Source of the DNA: Bacteroidia bacterium
GTDB taxonomy: Bacteria; Bacteroidota; Bacteroidia; Bacteroidales; GCA-2748055
Reading direction: 5' to 3'
DNA: 64,000 nucleotides
Assembly (NCBI GenBank): GCA_030639005.1
Contig: DAOWDN010000013.1
Coordinates: 13,453-77,452 of the forward strand
The notes under the pieces were generated by a model. That model was not told the origin of the DNA, searched no databases, and saw only the letters and a program-made list of their open reading frames with translations. Each line of letters starts with the position of its first letter. The stretch's first letter is position 1. This document shows, piece after piece, positions 51,594 to 64,000 of the stretch. Position numbers and translations under genes: made by a program.

Positions 51594-52637
51594 ATGACAA
51601 CAAAATGGAATAATACCGTCTTTAATATCGTATTCTGGCTGGCCTATTTTCTCTATGCCTGGCTGACCATGGCTTCCATTTACAATGAGTACCAGCGTTA
51701 CCTGATTAATGCTGCGGTACTCGTTCCCATCACAGCATCGGCTGCTGTGTTTACCGTGCATTTCCTGTTCAGGGTGCTTTATCAGAGGAACAGAAAAATC
51801 CTGTTCTGGACCGGGCTCTTCCTGAGTATGTTTGTCTTTATTCTAATCAGGCGTAGTTTCAATTATTTTTACACCTACCCATTGTATTATCCGGAGGCGC
51901 TGGAGACCATGTCTTTCTGGTTTTTGCCTAAGTTAATTATCGAGGGAGTGAATATCTACCTTTTTGTCGGCCTCTACAGCATGTTCTATTTTATCAAGGC
52001 GTGGTACGACCAGGAACGCCTGTCACATACTCTGAAGCAGGAGAAGGCCGAAGCTGAACTGAAGTTGCTGAAATCGCAGGTGCAACCACACTTCATTTTC
52101 AACACACTTAATAACATCTACTCCTACGCAGTTCAGAAAAATGAAAAAACCGCAGATCTCATCCTCCAATTATCCTCCTTTCTTAGCTATGGGTTGTATG
52201 AGAGCAAGCCAGAGTTGGTGCCCCTTCAGAAGGAGATCGATGTGATCAGATCTTACATTGAACTGGAAAGGATCAGGTATGGAGATCGCCTGGATGCTTC
52301 CATCAACGTTTTCGACAATGTGGACCAAACACTAATTTCTCCACTGCTCCTGTTGCCCCTGGTAGAGAACAGTTTTAAGCACGGATTTACTTCTTCGATC
52401 GATAAATGTTGGATCAGACTAGATATCTCCTGTTCCAGGGAAGAGCTGGTGGTGAAGATTGAAAACAGCATCGGAGAGGAGCAGGAGAAGAGTGAGTCAG
52501 ACAATGGGGGACTAGGACTGATGAACTTGCGGCGAAGGCTTGAAATCTTATATCCATCGAAACATGAGTTCAGAACGAAAATAGTGAAAGACTCATTTCT
52601 TGCAGTTTTAAAAATCAAAATAAAGCGTCATGGTTAG
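51594..52637 (+). CDS. LytS/YehU-type sensor histidine kinase (His_kinase PF06580-like)
   Basis: N-terminal TM helices, the hallmark QVQPHFIFNTLNNIYS, and a HATPase tail (LLLLPLVENSFKHG, GGLGLMNLRRRL). Confidence 0.85.
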   Translation: MTTKWNNTVFNIVFWLAYFLYAWLTMASIYNEYQRYLINAAVLVPITASAAVFTVHFLFRVLYQRNRKILFWTGLFLSMFVFILIRRSFNYFYTYPLYYPEALETMSFWFLPKLIIEGVNIYLFVGLYSMFYFIKAWYDQERLSHTLKQEKAEAELKLLKSQVQPHFIFNTLNNIYSYAVQKNEKTADLILQLSSFLSYGLYESKPELVPLQKEIDVIRSYIELERIRYGDRLDASINVFDNVDQTLISPLLLLPLVENSFKHGFTSSIDKCWIRLDISCSREELVVKIENSIGEEQEKSESDNGGLGLMNLRRRLEILYPSKHEFRTKIVKDSFLAVLKIKIKRHG

Positions 52638-53352
52638 ATGCCTGATCGTTGATGATGAACCCCCGGCCAGGGAACTAATAGCTTCTTACATCTCAAGGCT
52701 GAACGACCTGGTACTGGTGGAGCAGTGCGGAAATGCACTGGAAGCATTCAGTTGCTTGCAGAACCAGACCATCGATCTGATGTTTCTTGATATTCAGATG
52801 CCGAAGATGACCGGTTTGGAGCTAATCAAGTCGCTCCACAATCCACCGAAAATCATCCTGACCACCGCTTACAAGGAGTATGCCAGTGAAGGCTTCGACC
52901 TGGATGTGCTGGATTACCTGGTAAAACCCATTCCGTTCGAGCGCTTTATGAGATCGGTGGCCAAGTACCACCAGTATACCAACAGGACTGTGGAAGAGGC
53001 CCCCCTGGAGAGCACCTACGACAGGGCCTATCTCTTTGTGAAGGTAAACAAGGAACAAGTAAAGCTGTATTTCAAAGAGATTATTGTCATTGAGAGCATG
53101 AAAGATTATATCAGGATTACCACACACGACGCCTCCTTTGTGACATACAGCCGTCTCTCTTACATGGACGAAGTACTTCCTGAGACACGGTTTGTACGTA
53201 TTCATAAATCATACATCATTGCGTTAAGTGAGGTTAAGTCATACCGAAATGACTCAGTGACAGTGGGAGATTCCACATATCCTGTTGGAAGGATCTACAA
53301 GAAGAGGTTCCAGGATGCACTATTAAGCTATCAGAATGGAGTAAGAGAGTAG
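52630..53352 (+). CDS. LytTR-family DNA-binding response regulator
   Basis: REC domain (CLIVDDEPPA, FLDIQMPKMTG, KPI) plus a LytTR domain (IIVIESMKDYIRITTHD...FVRIHKSYII). It overlaps the kinase gene by 8 nt. Confidence 0.9.
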   Translation: MVRCLIVDDEPPARELIASYISRLNDLVLVEQCGNALEAFSCLQNQTIDLMFLDIQMPKMTGLELIKSLHNPPKIILTTAYKEYASEGFDLDVLDYLVKPIPFERFMRSVAKYHQYTNRTVEEAPLESTYDRAYLFVKVNKEQVKLYFKEIIVIESMKDYIRITTHDASFVTYSRLSYMDEVLPETRFVRIHKSYIIALSEVKSYRNDSVTVGDSTYPVGRIYKKRFQDALLSYQNGVRE

Positions 53353-53458: not shown

Positions 53459-54670
53459 ATGATGAAGAAATTAACTTTAATTATACTCTGCCTGACCGCA
53501 GTTTTGTCGGGTTATTCACAGGATCCAACCAGTTGGAGGGGACCCACCCGTGACGGGATCTATCCCGAAACCGGATTGATGAAAGAGTGGCCTGCAGACG
53601 GACCGGAAGTTCTGTGGAGTTTCGAAGGATTGGGAAAGGGTCACTCCTCGGCCATCGTGGACAATGGTTTTGTCTATGTCACCGGGATGATTAACGAGCA
53701 AGGCTACCTTTTTAAGTTTGATCTGAAAGGAAAACTGGTATATAAAAAGACTTATGGTCCCGAATTCGCAGAGAGTTACGTAGGAACCCGGGGTACACCG
53801 ACTATTGTTGGTGAAAAGGTTTACCTTATGAGTGGACACGGAAAACTCTACTGCCTCGATGGAGGAAAGGGGACGATCCTTTGGAGCAAAGATCTCTTTA
53901 AGGATTTCGATGGAAAAATTATCGGGTGGGGAATGAATGAAACACCTGTGGTGGATGGCGATGTGGTATATATTACCCCGGGAGGGAGAAAGTACAATTT
54001 GGTGGCCCTGGACCGCCACTCCGGAAAACTGATCTGGAGTTCCCCCGGTAAGGGTGAACTGACAGCATACAGCACACCACTTCTGTTTGAACACAATGGA
54101 AGAAAAATGTTGGCCACCCACTACGAATCTCATCTGGTGGGATTTGATGCAAGCACAGGCAAGATGCTCTGGTCGCAGCACCAGCCCAACGAATATTCGG
54201 TACACCCAAATACACCTGTCTACCGCGATGGAATGCTATTCTACCTGAGTGGATACGGTAGGGGGGGTGGCATGCTGAAGATTGCTCCGGATGGCAATTC
54301 GGCATCGCGAGTATGGACCCACAAAAAGATGGACAGCCGCATGGGAGGTGCAGTGCTGGTGGATGGCTACATATATGGTTCTGGCGACAGCAGGCTCTGG
54401 TGCTGCTTTGACTGGAAGAGCGGCAAGGAGATGTATACCTCCAAGGATATCGGCAATGGCGTGGTGATTTATGCCGACGGAATGCTTTATTGCTACAGCC
54501 AGAGGGGCGAACTGGCCCTGGTCGAACCCGATCCTGCAGGCTTTAAAGTGGTCAGCAAGACCAAAGTGCTGCTGGGTTCCGAGCAACACTGGGCCCATCC
54601 GGTCATCTATGGGGGGGTGCTCTATGTTAGGCATGGCAAAGCGTTAATAGCTTATAAAGTCAAAAGCTGA
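53459..54670 (+). CDS. Secreted PQQ-like/BamB-type beta-propeller repeat protein, paralogue 1
   Basis: Signal peptide, then SWRGPTRDGIYPETGLMKEWPADGPEVLW. Repeated (V/I)Y(V/I)..G.L.(A/C)(L/F)D..(T/S)G...W blade motifs run throughout. It is alignable by eye with the next two ORFs. Confidence 0.85.
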   Translation: MMKKLTLIILCLTAVLSGYSQDPTSWRGPTRDGIYPETGLMKEWPADGPEVLWSFEGLGKGHSSAIVDNGFVYVTGMINEQGYLFKFDLKGKLVYKKTYGPEFAESYVGTRGTPTIVGEKVYLMSGHGKLYCLDGGKGTILWSKDLFKDFDGKIIGWGMNETPVVDGDVVYITPGGRKYNLVALDRHSGKLIWSSPGKGELTAYSTPLLFEHNGRKMLATHYESHLVGFDASTGKMLWSQHQPNEYSVHPNTPVYRDGMLFYLSGYGRGGGMLKIAPDGNSASRVWTHKKMDSRMGGAVLVDGYIYGSGDSRLWCCFDWKSGKEMYTSKDIGNGVVIYADGMLYCYSQRGELALVEPDPAGFKVVSKTKVLLGSEQHWAHPVIYGGVLYVRHGKALIAYKVKS

Positions 54671-54691
54671 AAGTCTGTAAAGCTGAAAGTC
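54656..54691. repeat. AAAGTC/AAAGCT-rich direct repeats at the paralogue 1/2 junction
   Basis: AAAGCTGAAAGTC occurs twice (54663 and 54679, 16-nt period). The 13-mers AAAGTCAAAAGCT (54656) and AAAGTCTGTAAAG (54670) recur at 61758 and 61807. Confidence 0.8.
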
Positions 54692-54693
54692 AT

Positions 54694-55935
54694 ATGATGA
54701 GATTTATAATCGCGACGGTGGTCGTGATCGCATTTACACAAAACCTCCTGGCACAGGATGTGCAGTGGAGAGGGCCCAACAGGGACGGGATCTATGCCGA
54801 TACCGGTTTGTTGAAAGAGTGGCCCGAAGAGGGACCTGAGGTATTGTTTGTGGCTGAGGATCTGGGCAGGGGTTTTTCTTCGGCAGTAGCCACCAGTGAT
54901 ATGATTTATGCGTCAGGCATCAGGGATACCCTCGAGTACCTTACAGCTCTGAACCTGAATGGGGAGAAGTTGTGGGAGAAACCAATCGGTCGTTGCTGGA
55001 ACCAGTCTTTCCCCGAAACCCGGAGTACACCAACGGTGGAAGGTAACAGATTATATATGTTGACCGGCATGGATATGATGGTCTGTTTCCATGCGCTTAC
55101 CGGGGAGGTAATCTGGAGTGTGGACCTGCATGAGGTGTATGGTTCGCGCTGGGATATGTTTGGGGTTTCGGAATCGGTGCTGATTGTGGGAGACAAGGTG
55201 ATTACCACCCCGTGTGGGGAGTTAACCACGGCCATTGCCCTGGATAAAATGACCGGGGAGCTTATCTGGAAATCCAGGTCCATGGACGCCAGCCGTGGCA
55301 ATTTGTCCCCCATCCTGATTGAGCATTGTGGAAAAGAGTATGTCATCACTTCCACCCAGACTCATATGATAGGAGTCGATCCGGAGAATGGAGAGATTCT
55401 CTGGGACTACCACTACAACTTTCTGAATTCGGCACATGAGAATACGACCATCCTGGCCAATACGCCCATTTATAACGATTCCTGCGTATGGATCTCCAAC
55501 GGTTGGGATGTGCCATCAGTGATGCTTGAGATTGCTCCCGACGGGCGATCCGTTTCGGAGAAGTTCAGGGACCAGACCTTTGACAACCAGAATCACGGTG
55601 TGGTACTGGTGGACGGCTACCTCTACGGCTCCAATTTTACAGGGAGAAACAGCGGTAAATGGGTCTGCATGAACTGGAATACAGGGGAGATTGTTTGGAT
55701 CGGTGATTTTTACAACAAGGGGCCCTCTGTTTATGCCGATGGCATGCTCTACATCTATGAAGAGAAGCGGGGCAACATGGGACTGGTAAAAGCCGATCCC
55801 AAGAAATTTGAATTGGTCAGTTCATTCCGGCATTACGAAGGAAGTGGCCCGCACTGGGCACGTCCCACCATCTTCAATCAGATGTTGCTGGTGAGGCATG
55901 GAGAAAAATTAACAGCCTATAAAATAGGCAGTTAG
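54694..55935 (+). CDS. Secreted PQQ-like/BamB-type beta-propeller repeat protein, paralogue 2
   Basis: Signal peptide, then QWRGPNRDGIYADTGLLKEWPEEGPEVLF. It shares NQSFPETRSTPTVEG with paralogue 3 (NRSFPETRSTPTIED). Confidence 0.85.
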   Translation: MMRFIIATVVVIAFTQNLLAQDVQWRGPNRDGIYADTGLLKEWPEEGPEVLFVAEDLGRGFSSAVATSDMIYASGIRDTLEYLTALNLNGEKLWEKPIGRCWNQSFPETRSTPTVEGNRLYMLTGMDMMVCFHALTGEVIWSVDLHEVYGSRWDMFGVSESVLIVGDKVITTPCGELTTAIALDKMTGELIWKSRSMDASRGNLSPILIEHCGKEYVITSTQTHMIGVDPENGEILWDYHYNFLNSAHENTTILANTPIYNDSCVWISNGWDVPSVMLEIAPDGRSVSEKFRDQTFDNQNHGVVLVDGYLYGSNFTGRNSGKWVCMNWNTGEIVWIGDFYNKGPSVYADGMLYIYEEKRGNMGLVKADPKKFELVSSFRHYEGSGPHWARPTIFNQMLLVRHGEKLTAYKIGS

Positions 55936-55962
55936 TAGTTTATAGTTAACGAATAAAGAGAT

Positions 55963-57222
55963 ATGAGATACAGGAAATTTGCAGTAGTGACGGCAGCGGT
56001 ATGGATACTGGCTTTGTTGACCATCGCACAGATCCAGGCACAGGATACACAGTGGAGGGGGGCCAACAGGGATGGAAAATATCCCGATTCCGGATTGCTG
56101 AAAAGCTGGCCGGAGAGTGGCCCGGAACTGATCCTTAAGAAGGATGATCTGGGCAATGGATACTCTTCCCCCATAGTTTATGAAGGAATGATCTACATCA
56201 GCGGGAGGCGTCAGGAGGAGGATGTCATCACCAAACTTGACCTTCAGGGAAACATTCTGTGGGAAACCGTGTATGGGAAAGCCTGGAATAGGAGCTTTCC
56301 CGAAACCAGAAGCACACCTACTATTGAAGATGGACGAATTTACATCATGGGCGGACTGGGAACCATAGTGTGCATGGATACTGAGAAAGGGGAGATCCTC
56401 TGGCAGGTGAATACCCATGAGGAGCACGGGGGTGAATTTCATCGCTGGGGAATGACCGAATCGCTTCTGTTGACTGGCAGTGTAGTAATCTCTTCGCCCA
56501 CAGGGGAACAGACAGCTGTGGTTGCCCTGGATAAAAAGGACGGATCTCTTTTATGGAAATCCAAACCCCAGGGAGGGGTAAGATCCTACGTATCCCCCAT
56601 GCTGATCGAACACAATGGTACGAGGATGGTTCTGATCACCTCCAGCGAAGATTTTCTGGCAGTGGATCCCGAAACAGGAGAGGTATTCTGGAGCATCGAC
56701 CTGGTTATGGAATACGGTTTCGATGGCCGCAGGAACAATACCAACACCCCTCTTTTCCATAACGGAGAAATTTTTACCACCAGCGGTTATGATGCTTCCG
56801 CAGTAATGATAAAGCTATCTAAAGACGGGAAAGATGCTGAGGTCAAATGGAGCAACGACGTCCTTGATACCCACCATGGGGGCGTGGTGCTGCTGGATGG
56901 CTTCATCTATGGTTCCAACTGGCTCAACAACGGCAACGGAAACTGGGTTTGCCTGGAGTGGGAGTCCGGGAAGGTTATGTACGAGGAGAAGTGGTTCAAC
57001 AAGGGATCCATCATCTACGCAGACGGACTTCTTTATATCTTTGAGGAGAAGAACGGAAACATTGGATTGCTTGAACCAAGCCCCGAAGGTTTCGAACTGA
57101 TCAGCTCCTTTTTGCCTGAAGGTGGAACAGGACCCTGGTGGGTACACATGACCATCTATGAGAAGAAGCTGTTTGTGAGGCACGGAGCAACGCTTTTTGT
57201 GTATGATATAGAAAAGAGTTAA
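55963..57222 (+). CDS. Secreted PQQ-like/BamB-type beta-propeller repeat protein, paralogue 3
   Basis: Signal peptide, then QWRGANRDGKYPDSGLLKSWPESGPELIL. It is colinear with paralogues 1 and 2. Confidence 0.85.
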   Translation: MRYRKFAVVTAAVWILALLTIAQIQAQDTQWRGANRDGKYPDSGLLKSWPESGPELILKKDDLGNGYSSPIVYEGMIYISGRRQEEDVITKLDLQGNILWETVYGKAWNRSFPETRSTPTIEDGRIYIMGGLGTIVCMDTEKGEILWQVNTHEEHGGEFHRWGMTESLLLTGSVVISSPTGEQTAVVALDKKDGSLLWKSKPQGGVRSYVSPMLIEHNGTRMVLITSSEDFLAVDPETGEVFWSIDLVMEYGFDGRRNNTNTPLFHNGEIFTTSGYDASAVMIKLSKDGKDAEVKWSNDVLDTHHGGVVLLDGFIYGSNWLNNGNGNWVCLEWESGKVMYEEKWFNKGSIIYADGLLYIFEEKNGNIGLLEPSPEGFELISSFLPEGGTGPWWVHMTIYEKKLFVRHGATLFVYDIEKS

Positions 57223-57263
57223 AGGGTTAGTGAGGTAGTAGAGTGAGGATAAATACGACAAAT

Positions 57264-58670
57264 ATGGTGACCGGGTTGCTGCTGCTTATGGGAGTGGTTT
57301 CCATGGGTTGGTGGCTGGCAAAGGACCCGGTGAGTGAATTTGTGACCACCCAGCCCGGACTGGATAACCGCGGAGAGGGCGGGGTGGTGGCCGATATCGA
57401 TATCGGGGCCTATTTTGAGTCGCTCGGCACCCTCGATTCGGATCTGCAGGAGACATGGCCCAGGTTTCGGGGAGAGCAGTTCGACAACATCAGCCGCTCA
57501 CAAGTCAGGTTGATTGAGAAGTTTCCTGACGGGGGACCGGTAGTGAAGTGGGAAGTTTCCCTGGGGGAGGGCCACGCAGGTGCAGCCATCTACAAGGGAG
57601 CAGTCTACGTAATGGATTACGATGAGGAGCAGCGGGCTGACCTGCTGCGGGCCTATGTCCTGGAAACCGGGGAGGAGCTCTGGGTGCGGGGGTACAAGAT
57701 CAACCTGAAAAGGAACCATGGCATGTCACGTACCGTCCCGGCCGTTACAGAGGAGCATATCCTTACCATTGGTCCACGCAGCCATGTGATGTGTGTGCGT
57801 CGTGTGGACGGGGAGTTTCTCTGGGGACTGAATGTTGAGAAAGATTATGAGGCTGAAATTCCACTCTGGTATACGGGACAATGTCCCCTTATCCACCAAG
57901 GCAAAGCAGTGATAGCCACCGGAGGCACCTCCCTGCTGGTTGCCCTCGATATGGAAAGTGGTGAGATACTCTGGGAGACCCCCAATGAGAAGGGGTGGCA
58001 GATGTCGCACTCCTCGGTGATGCCATACGAATTCGGGGGAAAGCTTATGTATGTGTACAGTGCCTACGGAGGGGTATTCGGTGTGGAAGCTGAAGGTCCC
58101 GATGCCGGCAAGATCCTCTGGGAAACAACTGCCTGGAACCACCAGGTGGTGGCTCCCTCACCGGTATGCATGCCCGACGGAAAGGTATTTCTTACTGCCG
58201 GTTATGGCGCGGGTGCCATGGTATTACAGCTCTCTCCTGCCGGGGAGGGATTCAGTGTGGAGGTGCTTAGCGAGTACACACCCAAAGAGGGACTTGCCTG
58301 CGAACAGCAGACCCCGGTGGAATTCAACGGGCACCTGCTGGGGATCCTCCCCAAGGATGCCGGTCCGCTCAGGAACCAGTTGATCTGTGTGCATCCCGAC
58401 AACTTTAGCAAGGTGATCTGGTCGAGCGGCCAGGACAAACGGTTTGGACTGGGGCCCTACATGATCGCTGACAACAAACTCTTTATATTGAGTGACGATG
58501 CCACACTGACCATAGTCAGGCCCAGCACAAGCCAGTACCTGGAGCTGGACAGTTACAGGGTACTGGAGGGGTACGATGCCTGGGGTCCGCTGGCCATTGC
58601 CGACGGGTACCTGGTGATGCGTGATTCGAAAACCATGGTGTGTCTCGATATGGCCGCATCACGGCAGTGA
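57264..58670 (+). CDS. Membrane-anchored PQQ-like beta-propeller repeat protein, paralogue 4
   Basis: N-terminal TM helix (MVTGLLLLMGVVSMGWWLA), then WPRFRGEQFDN and propeller blade motifs. The ORF is open from GTG 57243, but ATG 57264 is preferred. Confidence 0.8.
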   Translation: MVTGLLLLMGVVSMGWWLAKDPVSEFVTTQPGLDNRGEGGVVADIDIGAYFESLGTLDSDLQETWPRFRGEQFDNISRSQVRLIEKFPDGGPVVKWEVSLGEGHAGAAIYKGAVYVMDYDEEQRADLLRAYVLETGEELWVRGYKINLKRNHGMSRTVPAVTEEHILTIGPRSHVMCVRRVDGEFLWGLNVEKDYEAEIPLWYTGQCPLIHQGKAVIATGGTSLLVALDMESGEILWETPNEKGWQMSHSSVMPYEFGGKLMYVYSAYGGVFGVEAEGPDAGKILWETTAWNHQVVAPSPVCMPDGKVFLTAGYGAGAMVLQLSPAGEGFSVEVLSEYTPKEGLACEQQTPVEFNGHLLGILPKDAGPLRNQLICVHPDNFSKVIWSSGQDKRFGLGPYMIADNKLFILSDDATLTIVRPSTSQYLELDSYRVLEGYDAWGPLAIADGYLVMRDSKTMVCLDMAASRQ

Positions 58671-58690
58671 ACAATGAAAAAGAGAACAGG

Positions 58691-59677
58691 ATGAAAAAGA
58701 GAGGTTTGACAATCGTAATTCTGGTGATCCTGACTGTGATAATCGGGGTGATTGTGGTTGATTTTCTGAACAACCGGCCCGATCGCAGGGGAGAGAATCC
58801 CTATGCCCTGGAGGTGGACCAGTACAAAGTGGTAGACCCGGAGCTGATTTCCCATAAGGAGACCCGGAACTTTGATCTGGGACTGCTGATCGCCTCCGAC
58901 ATGAGCCTGTATGACCGGGCCCTTTATGTTTCAGGAAACTCATCGCTGGTGGTGATCCCCCTGGATGGCAGACCGGCTACCATGCATGAGATTCTGCCAC
59001 GGGCTACCTGCCTTGAGGTGGACCAGGGGAATATCTTTGTAGGTTTCTCCACCTATGTGGCAAAGTACAGCCATGAGGGAGAGCTGTTGCAGGAGTGGCC
59101 CCACCTGGGCGAAAGCACAGTGATCACCAATCTGGCCATCAAGGAGGATAAAGTATTTGTAGCCGATGCCGGCAACCGGCGCATAGTGATCTTCAACCGC
59201 GAAGGTGAGCAGGAGGGAGAATTTGAGGGGAAGGCCGAATCTGAAGCAGGACATGGATTTATTATTCCCAGTGCCAATTTCGACCTGGCGGTGAACAGCT
59301 TTGGGGAATTGTGGGTGGTGAACACGGGTAAACATGCCCTGGAGAATTACAGCGATGACGGACGGATGCGGGGTTACTGGGATAAGGCTTCCTTTGATAT
59401 TGATGGATTCATGGGATGTTGCAATCCTGCACGCATAACGGTTATGGAGGATGGCTCCTTTGTGACCAGTGAGAAGGGAATTGTCAGGATAAAAATTTAT
59501 GATCAGTCTGGAGAACTGATCAGTGTGGTGGCACCACCTGCTCTCTTTAAGAAAGAGAGGAGTGCCAATGAAGAGGGAAAAGCACCGGAGGTTTGCGTAG
59601 ATGAGAACGGAGTGGTTTACGCACTAGATTTTGACAGAGATGTGATCAGAGTTTTTGAACCGATTGAATCAGAATAG
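58691..59677 (+). CDS. Membrane-anchored NHL-repeat beta-propeller protein
   Basis: N-terminal TM helix (LTIVILVILTVIIGVIVV) and NHL-type blades (VFVADAGNRRIVIFNREGE, ELWVVNTGKHALENYSDDG, VVYALDFDRDVIRVFE). Start at ATG 58691. Confidence 0.8.
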   Translation: MKKRGLTIVILVILTVIIGVIVVDFLNNRPDRRGENPYALEVDQYKVVDPELISHKETRNFDLGLLIASDMSLYDRALYVSGNSSLVVIPLDGRPATMHEILPRATCLEVDQGNIFVGFSTYVAKYSHEGELLQEWPHLGESTVITNLAIKEDKVFVADAGNRRIVIFNREGEQEGEFEGKAESEAGHGFIIPSANFDLAVNSFGELWVVNTGKHALENYSDDGRMRGYWDKASFDIDGFMGCCNPARITVMEDGSFVTSEKGIVRIKIYDQSGELISVVAPPALFKKERSANEEGKAPEVCVDENGVVYALDFDRDVIRVFEPIESE

Positions 59678-59687
59678 TCAGAAAAGC

Positions 59688-59900
59688 ATGGACAGAAGAG
59701 ACTTTGTACAAAAAATTGGCAGGGGAAGCTTGCTGGCGGCAATGGCTGCTGTGGCAGGGATCCTACTGGCCCGCAGACAGGTGGTTCCCGACCAGGAGTG
59801 CAACGATAGAAAGCAATGCAGAGAGTGCCCGAGCTTGTCGCAATGCCAGTTGCCAGAAGCCATAACTACTCGCGATCATGGAGAAGAAGGACAAGGATAA
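59688..59900 (+). CDS. Small (70 aa) twin-arginine-signal protein with a C-x5-C-x2-C-x5-C motif
   Basis: MDRRDFVQKIGRGSLLAAMAAVAGILLA is a Tat-type RRxFxxK n-region plus h-region. The mature part QVVPDQECNDRKQCRECPSLSQCQLPEAITTRDHGEEGQG has four Cys. It starts 10 nt after the NHL gene and overlaps the ferredoxin gene by 23 nt. Confidence 0.6.
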   Translation: MDRRDFVQKIGRGSLLAAMAAVAGILLARRQVVPDQECNDRKQCRECPSLSQCQLPEAITTRDHGEEGQG

Positions 59901-60468
59901 GGATAAGGGATACAACAGGCGATCGTTTATCAACAACGGGGTGAGGCTTGCCCTGGGTGTATCGGTGGTGGGCACTGCTGCGTTTACCCTGCAGCGTTCC
60001 GCTTCCGGGAAAGACTATGTATGGCAGATCGATCCCTTTAAATGTACCCAGTGCGGACGGTGTGCCACCGAATGTGTGAAGGCCGAATCGGCGGTGAAGT
60101 GTGTCCACGCTTACGCTCTGTGTGGGTACTGCGATTTGTGTGGTGGCTATTTCAAGCCGGGTGCCAAGTTGCAGACCGGTGCTGAAAACCAGCTCTGTCC
60201 CACCGCAGCCATCCAGCGGAAGTTTATCGAGGAGCCCTATTTTGAATACATTATCGACGAAGAGCTTTGCATTGGTTGTGCCAAATGTGTGAAGGGGTGT
60301 TCCGCCTTCGGGAACGGATCGCTCCACTTACAAATCAGACACGATCTCTGTCTCAACTGCAATCAGTGCTCCATAGCCACCAACTGTCCGTCTGATGCCA
60401 TCAGCCGGGTGCCGGCCAGTGAACCATACATCATTAAAGGTAATTTCACCACCGAGGAGGAGAGTTAA
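59878..60468 (+). CDS. Twin-arginine-signal poly-[4Fe-4S] ferredoxin (NapG/MauM-like)
   Basis: Tat motif NRRSFINNGVRLALGVSVVGTAAF. Cys motifs are CTQCGRCATEC, C-x7-CGYCDLCGG, CIGCAKCVKGC and CLNCNQCSIATNCP. Confidence 0.8.
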   Translation: MEKKDKDKDKGYNRRSFINNGVRLALGVSVVGTAAFTLQRSASGKDYVWQIDPFKCTQCGRCATECVKAESAVKCVHAYALCGYCDLCGGYFKPGAKLQTGAENQLCPTAAIQRKFIEEPYFEYIIDEELCIGCAKCVKGCSAFGNGSLHLQIRHDLCLNCNQCSIATNCPSDAISRVPASEPYIIKGNFTTEEES

Positions 60469-60469
60469 T

Positions 60470-61831
60470 ATGCTGAAAAAAATCCCCAACCTTGCTCTCA
60501 TACTTATTCTTTTTGCACTGTTGACAGGCAGTTTCCTCCAGGCCCAGCAACGCTTTCCAAAACCTGAGTTCGATACGGGATATGTGCAGCCCGATCCCAC
60601 CACCCCTGAACCGAGGGCTATGGCGCTGGAATATTTCGATGTGTTGGTGCTGCTGGCAGTACTGTCTCTGGCCTCGTGGCTGGCAGTGAAGAAGCGGTCG
60701 AGGCGCGGTTTGCTCTGGTTGTCCGTGTTTTCGCTGATCTATTTCGGATTTTACCGCGACGGATGTATTTGTTCCATTGGGGCAATACAGAATGTGGCAC
60801 TCTCAATCTTCGATCCGGGGTATGCCATCTCCATCACTGCACTGCTCTTTTTTATTCTGCCCCTCCTCTTTGCCCTTTTCTTCGGGCGCACCTTCTGCGC
60901 GGCAGCCTGTCCGCTTGGAGCCATACAGGATCTTGTGGTGATCAATCCCGTTTCAATCCCCAGCTGGATCAGGAAAACCCTCGGGTTTATCCCGGTGATC
61001 TATCTGGCTCTGTCGGTTTTGTTTGCAGCTACCGGAAGCGATTTTATCATCTGCAGGTACGATCCCTTTGTGGGGATTTTCCGTATGGACGGTCCTTTCT
61101 TAATGATTTTCCTGGGGATCACTTTCCTGCTGCTGGGGATGTTCTATGCCCGGCCCTACTGCAGGGTGTTTTGTCCCTACGGGGTGCTGCTGAGCTGGAT
61201 GTCAAAGTTCTCAAAATGGCACCTCTCCATCACTCCTTCGGAGTGCATCAAATGCAAACTGTGTAAAGATTCCTGTCCTTTCGATGCCATCGAAGTACCG
61301 GTAGAACAAGCTTACAGGACACCGGAAGTTTCCAGAAAGAACCTGAAAAGATTTATTCTCTATATAGGGCTGATCCCGGTGCTGATCCTGCTGGGTGGAT
61401 GGATCGGTTCAAAATCTCATATTTTCCTGAGCCGCGTTCACCCCGATGTCTACCTGGCCGAACTGATGATCAGTCAACCCGAACTGAAAGAGGATGAGGA
61501 GAACCTGGATATCCAGGCCTTTCTGGAATCGGGCGATACTTTTGAGCAGCTGGTTGACCAGGCTGCAGTGATCCGGGAGAAGTTCAGGAAAGGTAGCTTG
61601 GTCATGGGAGGGTTTATAGGACTGGCCCTGGGTATTACACTGATGAACCAGGTGGTGTTCCGGCGCCGGGAGGATTACGAACCCCACAAGGGGGATTGTT
61701 TCTCCTGTGGCCGTTGCATGGATTACTGCCCCATAGACAGTCAAAAGTCAAAAGGCGAAAGTCAAAAGCTAAATGTCGAAAGTCTAAAGCTAAAAGTCGA
61801 AAATCAAAAGTCTGTAAAGTCAAAAGGATGA
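60470..61831 (+). CDS. Integral-membrane polyferredoxin (NapH/MauN-like, two CX3CP motifs plus two 4Fe-4S motifs)
   Basis: N-terminal signal or TM helix and multiple TM helices. CX3CP motifs are FCAAACPLG and YCRVFCPYG. CxxCxxCxxxCP motifs are CIKCKLCKDSCP and CFSCGRCMDYCP, and they are separated by two extra predicted helices. Start at ATG 60470, 1 nt after the ferredoxin stop. Confidence 0.8.
   Translation: MLKKIPNLALILILFALLTGSFLQAQQRFPKPEFDTGYVQPDPTTPEPRAMALEYFDVLVLLAVLSLASWLAVKKRSRRGLLWLSVFSLIYFGFYRDGCICSIGAIQNVALSIFDPGYAISITALLFFILPLLFALFFGRTFCAAACPLGAIQDLVVINPVSIPSWIRKTLGFIPVIYLALSVLFAATGSDFIICRYDPFVGIFRMDGPFLMIFLGITFLLLGMFYARPYCRVFCPYGVLLSWMSKFSKWHLSITPSECIKCKLCKDSCPFDAIEVPVEQAYRTPEVSRKNLKRFILYIGLIPVLILLGGWIGSKSHIFLSRVHPDVYLAELMISQPELKEDEENLDIQAFLESGDTFEQLVDQAAVIREKFRKGSLVMGGFIGLALGITLMNQVVFRRREDYEPHKGDCFSCGRCMDYCPIDSQKSKGESQKLNVESLKLKVENQKSVKSKG
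61739..61826. repeat. Tandem 21-23-nt AAAGTC/AAAGCT repeats (about 3 full units plus partials) forming the 3' end of the polyferredoxin gene
   Basis: Units are GAAAGTCAAAAGCTAAATGTC (61757), GAAAGTCTAAAGCTAAAAGTC (61778) and GAAAATCAAAAGTCTGTAAAGTC (61799). They encode ESQKLNV/ESLKLKV/ENQKSVKS. Two 13-mers are shared with 54656-54682. Confidence 0.8.
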
Positions 61832-63681
61832 AAAATAATTTGGATCAGGAACAAAGAATATCGCTGGCCCACAGGGTGGCGCTGATTTCCGGGATCTTCT
61901 GCGGGGTGGTGGCCCTGCTGCTGATATTGAACTTCTGGCACATGAAGCAGCATGAACCGCTGGAGAGCAAAACCATCGAAGTGCTGGTGGAAAGGCTGTC
62001 CAGTGAACCCGGTAATGAGGAGCTTAAGGAGGAGATCCGCAGCTTCGACCTGCTGGCACGCAAAGCCTACTTCACCAGCCGGTGGCAGGTAAAAACAGGT
62101 ACCTGGCTCTTGTTGTTCGGCGGCATTGTAATGGCTGCTTCACTGAAGGTATATACCGATTTACGGGCCAGGATCGAAGCGCCCGAAAAAGTAACAGAAG
62201 AGCTGCTTCGTGCCAGGGCTAATTCCCAGTACTGGCTGATGGTGGCCGGGGGACTCATCCTGGGTTTCTCGCTGGTGGCAGGATACCTGAGTAACGACTA
62301 CCTGAAGGAGTATCAGGCCATGGGTGTTGTGGAAGAGACAGAACAGCCGCAGGATGGGATTGAGGTAATCAAAGTTTTCCCCGCCCAAGAGTCAGCCGAT
62401 ACCTTGGGAAGTGATTCCGCCATTGAACAGGAGGGTGCATCCGGAGCTGAGGCAATCGAAGGTGCCGGAGATGAGACAGAAACTGCCACACAACCGGTTG
62501 CAGTTCAAACAACATCCCGGTTTAATCGTGATGATTTCAAAACGAACCAGGCCACGTTCAGGGGATACATGGGGCAGGGGGTTTCCTATCACAAAAATAT
62601 CCCGGAAAAGTGGAACGGCTCCACCGGAGAAAATATCAAATGGAAGGTGGCCTTCTCCAAACCCGGGTACAACACCCCGGTGATCTGGGACGATAAACTC
62701 TTTATCTCAGGAGGTGATGCTGCCTCAAGGGTCGTGGCATGCTATAACCGGAACAACGGTCAACTACTGTGGGAGAAGGAGGTGACAGGCATTCCCGGAT
62801 CACCTGCAGCGATGCCGAGGGTGACCGACGATACGGGACTGGCTGCCCCCACCATGGCGGTGGACGGCAATCGGGTCTATGCCATTTTTGCCACTGGCGA
62901 TGTAGTTGCATTCGACCTGCAGGGCAACAAAATCTGGGGCCGCAACCTGGGGGTTCCAAATAACCATTACGGACACTCCTCTTCGCTACAGGTATGGGAG
63001 AACAAACTGGTGGTGCAGTATGATACCAATACCAGGGGCAGGATGCTGGCCCTAAATACTGCCAACGGTGAGACTCTCTGGGATGTGGAACGTCCGGTTC
63101 ATATCTCCTGGGCCTCCCCGGCGCTGATCGAAGTGAACGGGAAGATCCAGGTGATCACCACTGCTGATCCTTATGTGTCGGGGCATGATCTGGAAACAGG
63201 GGCTGAAATCTGGAAGGTGGAGGCGATGATGGGCGAAGTGGGACCCTCCGTGGCCTATGAGGACGGACTGGTGTATGCCACCAACGAGTATGCCCGCCTG
63301 GTTGCCGTGGAGCCCAAGCCGGGAGCCGAGTTTACCTGGGAGGACGATGAGTACCTGTCCGAAGCGGCCAGTCCGGTGGCTTACAACGGATTGCTTTATC
63401 TGGCCACCAGTTATGGAGTGCTTGTCTGTTACGATGCCCTTACCGGGGAGAAGCAGTGGGAGAAAGAGTATAATGAAGGATTCTATTCTTCCCCGATGAT
63501 CGCCGATGGAAAACTGTATATCATCGACCTGGATGGTGTGACCCACATTATCAAGGCCGATCGTTCAGGCACCGTGGTTGCAGATCCCGAACTGGGCGAA
63601 GGTGGTTTTGCACTCCCGGTATTTGCAGACGGAGTGATCTACCTCAGGGGCATGGAGCATTTGTATTGTGTTGGGGAATAA
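61828..63681 (+). CDS. PQQ-like beta-propeller repeat protein fused to a 3-TM N-terminal domain and an acidic linker, paralogue 5
   Basis: ATG 61828 overlaps the upstream stop (ATGA). Three hydrophobic helices are followed by an acidic low-complexity linker (EETEQPQDG...EGAGDETETATQP). Then come FRGYMGQG and propeller blades (LFISGGD, VYAIFATGDVVAFDLQGNKIW, LYLATSYGVLVCYDALTGEKQW). Confidence 0.8.
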   Translation: MKNNLDQEQRISLAHRVALISGIFCGVVALLLILNFWHMKQHEPLESKTIEVLVERLSSEPGNEELKEEIRSFDLLARKAYFTSRWQVKTGTWLLLFGGIVMAASLKVYTDLRARIEAPEKVTEELLRARANSQYWLMVAGGLILGFSLVAGYLSNDYLKEYQAMGVVEETEQPQDGIEVIKVFPAQESADTLGSDSAIEQEGASGAEAIEGAGDETETATQPVAVQTTSRFNRDDFKTNQATFRGYMGQGVSYHKNIPEKWNGSTGENIKWKVAFSKPGYNTPVIWDDKLFISGGDAASRVVACYNRNNGQLLWEKEVTGIPGSPAAMPRVTDDTGLAAPTMAVDGNRVYAIFATGDVVAFDLQGNKIWGRNLGVPNNHYGHSSSLQVWENKLVVQYDTNTRGRMLALNTANGETLWDVERPVHISWASPALIEVNGKIQVITTADPYVSGHDLETGAEIWKVEAMMGEVGPSVAYEDGLVYATNEYARLVAVEPKPGAEFTWEDDEYLSEAASPVAYNGLLYLATSYGVLVCYDALTGEKQWEKEYNEGFYSSPMIADGKLYIIDLDGVTHIIKADRSGTVVADPELGEGGFALPVFADGVIYLRGMEHLYCVGE

Positions 63682-63756: not shown

Positions 63757-64000
63757 GTGGAGATTGAAATAAGAGATATAGATGCGATGGTGGAGGAACT
63801 GGGAGGCGGGCAGAGCTCTGTCATACCCATTCTGCAAGCCATCCAGGAGCGGTACAACTACCTGCCCGAAGAGGCATTGCGCAGGGTGTGTGAGATTTCT
63901 GAGATCACCGCGGCTCAGATAGTGGGGGTAGCCAGTTTCTATTCCCAGTTCAGGTTTACCCCGGCCGGTGACCACATGATCAAGGTATGTGTGGGCACTG
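63757..64000 (+). CDS. NuoE/HoxE-like [2Fe-2S] thioredoxin-fold subunit of an NADH-linked oxidoreductase/hydrogenase; 3' end outside the window
   Basis: Hand translation gives VEIEIRDIDAMVEELGGGQSSVIPILQAIQERYNYLPEEALRRVCEISEITAAQIVGVASFYSQFRFTPAGDHMIKVCVGT. This is the characteristic NuoE block ending in the first cluster Cys (VCxGT). The start may be GTG 63757 or ATG 63787. Confidence 0.75.
   Translation, partial: MEIEIRDIDAMVEELGGGQSSVIPILQAIQERYNYLPEEALRRVCEISEITAAQIVGVASFYSQFRFTPAGDHMIKVCVGT

Follow-up and report, generated by a model that had tools for sequence, protein, structure and literature searches.

Several described systems resemble parts of the locus analysed here. Rieske proteins (PetA) are inserted by the Tat system and keep their uncleaved N-terminal twin-arginine signal as an anchor, with the cofactor domain in the periplasm, according to an excerpt of PMC3623810. 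In the NapG/NapH and MauM/MauN pairs, a poly-[4Fe-4S] ferredoxin exported by Tat is teamed with a membrane polyferredoxin that has C-x3-C-P motifs, and the clients are nitrate reductase or amine dehydrogenase. To our knowledge, no small Cys4 anchor subunit has been described for the Nap or Mau systems. Very small proteins with comparable layouts include the formate dehydrogenase region TAT target (TIGR02811), which has a Tat signal and about 66-70 aa, and the FeoB-associated Cys-rich membrane protein (PF12669), which has one N-terminal helix and a Cys-rich tail. Endonuclease III and MutY bind a [4Fe-4S] cluster via C-x6-C-x2-C-x5-C (PMC11138216).

The window, the whole stretch of 64,000 nucleotides of Bacteroidia DNA that was analysed, encodes a cassette of five genes in the order propeller, NHL propeller, peptide, exported ferredoxin and NapH-like protein (Table 1). 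The last two genes encode a pair of the NapGH and MauMN type, and the peptide resembles the N-terminus of the NapG-like ferredoxin; however, the clients here would be propellers. The literature was searched for NapH/NapG with beta-propeller or NHL and for NapH-like or NapG-like with Planctomycetes, and nothing relevant was found. By analogy, the peptide is closest in its apparent mode of action to a Rieske-type Tat signal anchor that has been combined with a minimal Cys4 centre and placed in a NapGH/MauMN-like setting, although the likeness to Rieske proteins extends only to the proposed mode of insertion. The peptide has neither the Rieske fold nor the Cys/His [2Fe-2S] ligands, its ligand set being four Cys; it gives no Pfam Rieske match, no sequence relation was detected, the exported part would comprise only ~40 residues, and the second Arg of the signal is relaxed. 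The peptide belongs to none of the families tested. The favoured reading, to which a probability of roughly one half is given, is that the peptide is an N-in/C-out, Tat-type signal-anchored Cys4 accessory subunit of a NapGH-like module and probably binds Fe-S.

Table 1. The peptide gene, its parts and the neighbouring genes of the cassette (window coordinates).
Feature	Position	Strand	Remarks
PQQ_2/BamB-like propeller with N-terminal anchor ('prop4')	57243..58670	+	Pfam PQQ_2; first gene of the conserved five-gene core
Membrane-anchored NHL-type propeller	58640..59677	+	Directly upstream of the peptide gene; weak NHL match; start codon uncertain
Small-protein (peptide) gene	59688..59900	+	ORF and translation: 70 aa plus stop; ATG at 59688, stop ends at 59900
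n-region, residues 1-12 (MDRRDFVQKIGR)	59688..59723	+	Tat-type R-R-x-F motif; conserved Arg at position 12
Uncharged hydrophobic stretch, residues 13-28	59724..59771	+	Predicted helix; proposed uncleaved signal anchor
Basic c-region and short linker, residues 29-37 (RRQVVPDQE)	59772..59798	+	
Cys4 motif, C38-x5-C44-x2-C47-x5-C53	59799..59846	+	
L-P-E-A motif, 3' of Cys4	59850..59861	+	P56 conserved; preceded by Gln (QLPEA)
C-terminal tail	59862..59897	+	Acidic in the window copy; read from sequence
NapG-like Tat ferredoxin	59878..60468	+	196 aa; Pfam Fer4 families; four Cys groups for [4Fe-4S] clusters
NapH-like membrane polyferredoxin	60470..61831	+	Likely start is Met26 of the ORF opening at 60395

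Among the neighbours, the ferredoxin has invariant R14, R15 and 16 Cys (31/31 sequences with RR in the ferredoxin alignment). The NapH-like protein matches Fer4_5 and NapH/MauN below cut-off (41 vs. 213 bits for NapH/MauN); its start was placed from aligned starts, and an invariant QQRFPKPEF..GY.QP segment follows its Sec-type signal. Apparent fusions of NapH with a propeller were discarded as artefacts, the tblastn alignments having run through stop codons. The NHL protein carries a G-C-C-N-P motif that is at least 93% conserved over 105 sequences, and a prop4-type propeller lies upstream of NHL in both phyla identified as carriers, Bacteroidota and Planctomycetota.

The gene order is conserved well beyond the window. 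In a sample of 301 genomes from the order of the window, a profile of close relatives gave matches at E ≤ 0.01 in 34; the weakest few matches sit in frames of 190-230 aa and may represent the signal of the ferredoxin itself. In all 19 order-level loci fetched, the ferredoxin gene comes next after the peptide gene, with a gap of -22 to 155 nt. NHL precedes the peptide in 17 of the 19; L010 stops at a contig edge, and L012 has another propeller-like protein in place of NHL, with what we take, from reading the sequence rather than from a tool, to be a T9SS-type C-terminus. A profile match was also obtained in 40 of 301 sampled Planctomycetota genomes, 4 of these matches being the ferredoxin's own signal. 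All 30 Planctomycetota loci fetched carry the peptide, 26 of them in the order NHL-peptide-ferredoxin. In L049, NHL and the peptide gene are 0.9 kb apart, L032 has the peptide gene before NHL, and two loci end at a contig edge; where the DNA reaches both sides, the peptide gene is directly before the ferredoxin gene in 27 of 28. A further set was seeded with the ferredoxin and not conditioned on the peptide, and comprises the best 80 of more than 581 genome loci, all from Bacteroidota and with six cultured species. Here a peptide ORF is directly upstream in 78 of the 79 loci with enough DNA, and ~750 bp upstream in the remaining one. Whether homologues neighbour NapG/NapH-like genes was a check suggested with the original prediction, and these counts show that they do so consistently.

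The peptide is nevertheless an accessory, not a core, part of the cassette, because four Planctomycetota operons lack the gene. Of 41 Planctomycetota genomes in the sample with a strong ferredoxin orthologue (E ≤ 1e-74), 33 have the peptide. G856, G903, G978 and G983 encode propeller-NHL-ferredoxin-NapH-propeller with ~100 nt from NHL to ferredoxin and no Cys4 motif in the stretches fetched, and in G767, G815, G834 and G853 the ferredoxin is found in another context. The NapH N-terminal motif of the peptide-less operons is similar though degenerate, and nothing in it was diagnostic.

Both ends could be called in 61 of the 80 ferredoxin-seeded loci, the ferredoxin starts having been set by rule. 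In 46 of the 61, the two reading frames overlap at the peptide stop and the ferredoxin start; another 5 are separated by 0-30 nt and 10 by more. The overlap in the window had been taken to suggest stoichiometric co-production. Overlap is indeed the usual arrangement, but co-production itself is deduced from it, and the gene is missing in four operons. The same observations, together with the likeness of the peptide to the ferredoxin's own signal, could be accounted for by an assembly or escort factor that aids cofactor loading, Tat targeting or docking of the ferredoxin and is absent from the finished complex. Such a role is improbable. The Tat chaperones NapD, TorD and DmsD stay soluble in the cytoplasm and have neither signal nor anchor, and an invariant Cys4 domain beyond the anchor is hard to square with a cytoplasmic escort.

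Small proteins are often overlooked or left as 'hypothetical', and the peptide belongs to a large and widespread family without a name, present in two phyla and with sharply defined features. A full profile search of 1.84 billion representatives yielded 534 cluster representatives at E ≤ 0.001. Among the 150 matches listed are 146 small proteins, of which 138 have exactly C-x5-C-x2-C-x5-C and 143 have C-x(3-6)-C-x2-C-x5-C, the five beyond the 138 deviating in the first spacing alone. The exact spacing is likewise found in 75 of 78 ferredoxin-seeded neighbour peptides. R3 and all four Cys are invariant, and F6, R12 and P56 at least 90% conserved, in an alignment of 125 sequences; its rows were chosen for carrying the motif, and 138 of 146 is the unselected measure. 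The four Cys singled out in the original prediction are thus a conserved property of the family. A word-indexed search added 14 relatives with 74-81% identity, every one with four Cys, and in a 15-row alignment of close relatives G24 within the hydrophobic stretch is invariant. The x-x-P following Cys4 is present in 132 of 145 representatives, yet in just 45 of 78 ferredoxin-seeded neighbours.

Existing models and annotations do not describe this family. All 10 clusters looked up are 'hypothetical protein' or unnamed, and the ESM Atlas search returned only 'hypothetical protein' clusters. Pfam gave no match for the window copy and noise only across the 125 members, with TAT_signal matching 2 members at E 0.22. 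The commonest match, FeoB_associated (PF12669), covers 6 of the 125 members with a best E of 0.0045, and the Cys pattern and gene context differ from those of that family. No Fer4 model is among the 25 Pfam families most matched by the 125 members; the peptide spacing, C-x5-C-x2-C-x5-C, is not the C-x2-C-x2-C-x3-C-P of the Fer4 group. A PDB sequence search with the 125-sequence alignment gave only chance-level rows (E 0.23 and 0.53). No fused forms were seen among proteins of 162-2000 aa, which is weak evidence. No NCBIfam model covers the peptide, and TIGR02811 alone touches it, below cut-off (21.4 bits against 48.45, E 2.3e-4). The match aligns the signal part only (residues 2-42 with model positions 10-50), and no formate dehydrogenase genes are among the neighbours scanned; the analogy once drawn with Tat peptides of formate dehydrogenase regions extends to the signal alone. 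A second analogy compared the peptide with the small subunits of quinoprotein amine dehydrogenases (MauA; QHNDH gamma), and it fails for want of both Trp and maturation genes. The post-helix part of the window copy contains no Trp and one His, Trp occurs in 8 of 137 members, and no MauG or radical SAM maturation family was found among nine neighbours scanned. The earlier statement that the peptide is not of the TTQ/CTQ type is therefore upheld.

The ORF at 59688-59900 is a genuine gene under purifying selection. The dN/dS of the peptide gene is 0.24 and 0.24 in comparisons with two close relatives and 0.13 between these two relatives. The ORF itself, its ATG 10 nt past the NHL stop at 59677 and the overlap of its last 23 nt with the ferredoxin start (ATG 59878) were all reproduced from the sequence as first described. 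A chance ORF, or a mere 5' leader of a ferredoxin gene whose true start lies upstream, is very hard to credit. It is true that the ORF is short and that support for its product comes from sequence and not from the protein level. However, the frame differs from that of the ferredoxin, whose own start is conserved, the ATG at 59878 agreeing with the aligned starts of 30 homologues. The Cys are invariant and the synteny is kept across two phyla, and the family comprises 534 representatives.

The N-terminus of the peptide resembles a Tat signal in layout. The window copy opens with MDRRDFVQK, and its D-R-R-D-F-V n-region bears out the earlier description as a textbook Tat n-region, which does not extend to the family as a whole. 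Downstream of the invariant R3, the second position of the Arg pair gives RR in 86, RK in 43 and another pair in 8 of 137 representatives; the 78 ferredoxin-seeded neighbour peptides have RR in 30, RK in 39 and RN, RI, RL or RQ in 9, whereas the ferredoxins of the same seeded loci have RR in 78 of 80 by pattern. A relaxed second Arg is unusual for a strict Tat substrate. F6 is nonetheless conserved, the uncharged stretch is 16 residues long in 86 of 137 members, and R or K follows it in 132 of 137; in the window copy, RR begins the segment after the stretch. The window genome encodes the export machinery, with one TatC and two TatA/B/E matches over cut-off, and other ORFs with Tat signals in this genome align to the family profile over its first ~26 positions. 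According to an excerpt of PMC5539426, positive charges in the c-region block Sec, and a single Arg can suffice for Tat given a more hydrophobic signal. The hydrophobic stretch of the peptide has a mean Kyte-Doolittle value of 1.91, vs. 1.56 for the ferredoxin signal. The idea that greater hydrophobicity offsets the loss of RR was rejected, since RR and RK members are alike (1.89 vs. 1.93, p 0.49, with p-values that overstate because the sequences are related). Tat dependence of the peptide is likely. The family would offer a natural case of a Tat-like signal in which the twin arginine is relaxed while that of its neighbour is kept, which bears on the strictness of the RR rule.

RR is relaxed in 48 of 78 neighbours but kept in the ferredoxin, which could also mean that the N-terminus is a degenerate Tat relic and that the peptide is an N-in anchor inserted by Sec/YidC. 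The Cys domain would then cross the membrane unfolded, hold two disulfides or Zn or another metal, and serve only in docking or tethering of the ferredoxin or the propellers. The fairly hydrophobic anchor, the short exported part of about 40 aa and the lack of matches to Fe-S models fit this alternative, which is considered unlikely. R3, F6 and R12 remain conserved, and the residues that follow the hydrophobic stretch carry an average net charge of +3.4 in the family, which is unfavourable for Sec/YidC translocation. The Cys spacing is like a known [4Fe-4S] loop rather than a zinc ribbon, which usually has paired C-x2-C. Moreover, the basic residue directly after the stretch is a feature that disfavours Sec, as described in part of PMC5539426.

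Three explanations had been offered for Tat export of so small a protein: loading of a cofactor in the cytoplasm, hitch-hiking with a partner and an uncleaved signal that acts as a membrane anchor. Hitch-hiking is unnecessary because the ferredoxin bears its own invariant RR signal. The uncleaved anchor is the best fit. Only 8 of 137 members have small residues at -3/-1 where the hydrophobic stretch ends, the other 129 having no such site, and the absence of a signal-peptidase site from most members favours an uncleaved N-in/C-out anchor. AlphaFold2, run on the peptide alone with the 125-sequence alignment, predicts one confident helix for residues 3-28 (block pLDDT 83-93), and positive charge is greater on the N-flank than on the C-flank in 182 of 219 sequences. 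These features, and the higher hydrophobicity of the stretch relative to the ferredoxin signal, also favour the anchor, whereas the 16-residue stretch is short for a membrane span and counts against it. The acidic tail first reported is present in the window copy but peculiar to its lineage and not conserved, the tails of the family being mostly basic. A cleaved, soluble periplasmic protein, in which the ~40-residue Cys4 peptide is a free electron carrier or metal-binding peptide, would agree with the Tat-like layout and with the eight members that do have small -3/-1 residues. It is quite improbable, given the members without a site and the fixed length of the stretch, which with the invariant G24 of the close relatives fits a persisting, packed helix.

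The proposed anchor is followed, after a median of 9 residues, by four invariant Cys within 16 residues. Their spacing differs by a single residue from that in the loop of endonuclease III and MutY, whose C-x6-C-x2-C-x5-C is matched precisely by 3 of 146 representatives of the family. These two enzymes are cytoplasmic DNA glycosylases with another fold and no homology to the peptide, and the near-equal spacing is a lead on ligand geometry, not a test. On the strength of the Cys pattern, the Cys4 centre probably binds Fe-S. The Cys domain is modelled by AlphaFold2 with a pLDDT of 57-62, too weak for a fold search. A thiol-disulfide relay is a different possibility of low probability. In this alternative the C-x2-C pair would be redox-active, alone or beside a cluster as in ferredoxin:thioredoxin reductase, and would hand on reducing equivalents from the ferredoxin module to the conserved vicinal Cys-Cys of NHL. 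The C-x2-C pair is invariant, the G-C-C-N-P motif of NHL is highly conserved, and the two genes are adjacent in most loci. However, no thioredoxin-like fold or matching family was found, and all four Cys are invariant and not one pair.

The peptide profile matches the N-terminus of the ferredoxin, which suggests that the family arose by partial duplication of that N-terminus, probably comprising the signal and the start of the first Cys motif. Comparison of the two families with hhalign gave 97.4% and E 1.1e-11 over ferredoxin residues 5-68, a match that spans the signal, the basic residue and only the first C-x2-C of the ferredoxin; the signal region, in which even unrelated Tat signals look alike, accounts for much of the score. 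In the window genome, the ferredoxin ranks second among the profile matches with 15.2 bits, ahead of three matches with 11.3, 9.9 and 9.4; no ORF with only a Tat-type n-region and hydrophobic stretch exceeds 9.4. Separately, a record of 139 aa from a 762-bp contig (P0111) contains a peptide-like segment and a ferredoxin-like C-x2-C-x2-C-x3-C segment; as a single short record, it was given no weight. Within the Planctomycetota, a subgroup (loci L039, L043, L050 and L055) has C-x2-C-x2-C-x2-C-P, which is near the ferredoxin motif.

In the proposed mechanism, the peptide would be a single-pass small membrane protein whose Tat-type N-terminus (R-[RK]-x-F, 16-residue stretch, basic residue) stays uncleaved as an anchor, with the N-terminus in the cytoplasm and the ~40-residue C-terminal part facing the periplasm. 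The four Cys would hold a single metal centre, most probably a [4Fe-4S] cluster that is acquired in the cytoplasm ahead of Tat-dependent insertion, as with Rieske proteins. As an accessory subunit of the NapH-like/NapG-like iron-sulfur module, the peptide may either tether the exported ferredoxin at the membrane or add a relay centre near the membrane surface. We infer Tat dependence, retention of the signal, topology and cofactor from the features described above, and association with the ferredoxin or the NapH-like protein from gene order only. A three-chain co-fold with alignments, in which the peptide was the partner of the ferredoxin and the NapH-like protein, gave ipSAE values of 0.00 and 0.00 and was run without controls; it speaks neither for nor against binding. 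A bolder and tentative version holds that the peptide is a Tat-inserted, membrane-tethered mini-ferredoxin, born from a NapG-like signal and first Cys motif, with a ~40-residue ectodomain that carries one [4Fe-4S] cluster ~ten residues from the membrane. It would relay electrons between the NapH-like/NapG-like module and the anchored propellers, and represent a new class of respiratory small subunit. If this doubtful version were true, few known Fe-S proteins or Tat substrates would be smaller than the peptide. Should the peptide carry a cluster at all, it would be a new element in NapGH-type electron transfer across the membrane, and it provides a handle on the propeller/NapGH-like cassette.

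Within the Bacteroidota, the family is found mainly in the order of the window and in a few Lewinellaceae, Phaeodactylibacter and Cytophagales records (ferredoxin-seeded loci). A phylum-wide Bacteroidota sample gave matches in 3 of 401 genomes, including the window's own, the other two being marginal (E about 1e-3) and partial. Cultured carriers are Mariniphaga anaerophila DSM 26910, Draconibacterium orientale DSM 25947, D. sediminis, Sunxiuqinia elliptica, Maribellus mangrovi and Gaoshiqia sediminis. Among four RNA runs, positions 59487-59751, which include the peptide start, lie outside the contig cover and are uninformative on expression. A 448-nt contig covering 59752-60199, with the same boundaries in X11 and X9, joins the Cys half of the peptide to the ferredoxin start. 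The libraries are labelled metatranscriptomes, and the contig is a weak hint of co-transcription of peptide and ferredoxin, with DNA carry-over possible and the RNA label of X9 guessed. The cassette is common to Bacteroidota and Planctomycetota from cold-seep and marine-sediment samples, and near-identical DNA is present in metagenomes of the same kinds, where 12 runs contain at least half of the sampled words and two of these may be the source sample.

The small Cys4 gene is not a fixed component of the operon. In four Planctomycetota genomes (G856, G903, G978 and G983; loci L140, L141, L143 and L150–L153) the operon reads propeller, NHL, ferredoxin, NapH, propeller and lacks the small gene. 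In these four genomes the spacing between the NHL and ferredoxin genes is a mere 100 nt or so. Gene order also varies: in the Planctomycetota locus L032 (G922), the small gene lies 5' of the NHL gene. At locus L012 (G200), from the same order as the window, a propeller-like protein of at least 489 aa takes the place of the NHL protein upstream of the small gene; from its sequence we read its C-terminus as probably T9SS-type.

The small protein itself differs in a subgroup of Planctomycetota (L039, L043, L050, L054 and L055), which carries extra cysteines arranged along the lines of C-x5-C-x2-C-x2-C-x2-C-P, with ..P.C.PE after it. This pattern is closer to a ferredoxin motif.

The NHL-type protein contains a vicinal Cys-Cys pair within F257-x-G259-C260-C261-N262-P263, a segment whose named residues are at least 93% conserved among 105 sequences from Bacteroidota and Planctomycetota. 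It is conceivable that the pair forms a site, either redox-active or metal-binding, which is served by the Fe-S module of NapG-like Tat ferredoxin and NapH-like polyferredoxin. The latter has a Sec-type signal followed by the invariant segment QQRFPKPEF..GY.QP, and an invariant G-C-x-C motif at residues 98–101. In addition, the C-x3-C-P and Fer4 motifs occur twice each in this protein.

The five-gene core is flanked by further propeller genes (table). The likely start of the fifth propeller, the ATG at 61828, overlaps the stop of the NapH-like gene. The LytS-type kinase and LytTR regulator genes lie directly 5' of the propeller operon, and it is possible that their products regulate it.

Features of the window around the small gene
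Feature	Position	Remarks
LytS-type histidine kinase (PF06580) and LytTR response regulator	51594–53352	Same strand as propeller operon
Three PQQ_2/BamB-like propeller paralogues	53459–57222	Sec signal; upstream of five-gene core
NHL-type propeller	58640–59677	
NapH-like protein	60470–61831	Likely start at Met26 of listed ORF
Fifth propeller	61828–63681	Anchored by multiple helices; downstream of five-gene core
Thioredoxin-like [2Fe-2S] ferredoxin, NuoE/HoxE type (PF01257)	63757–63999	Begins at the window's end
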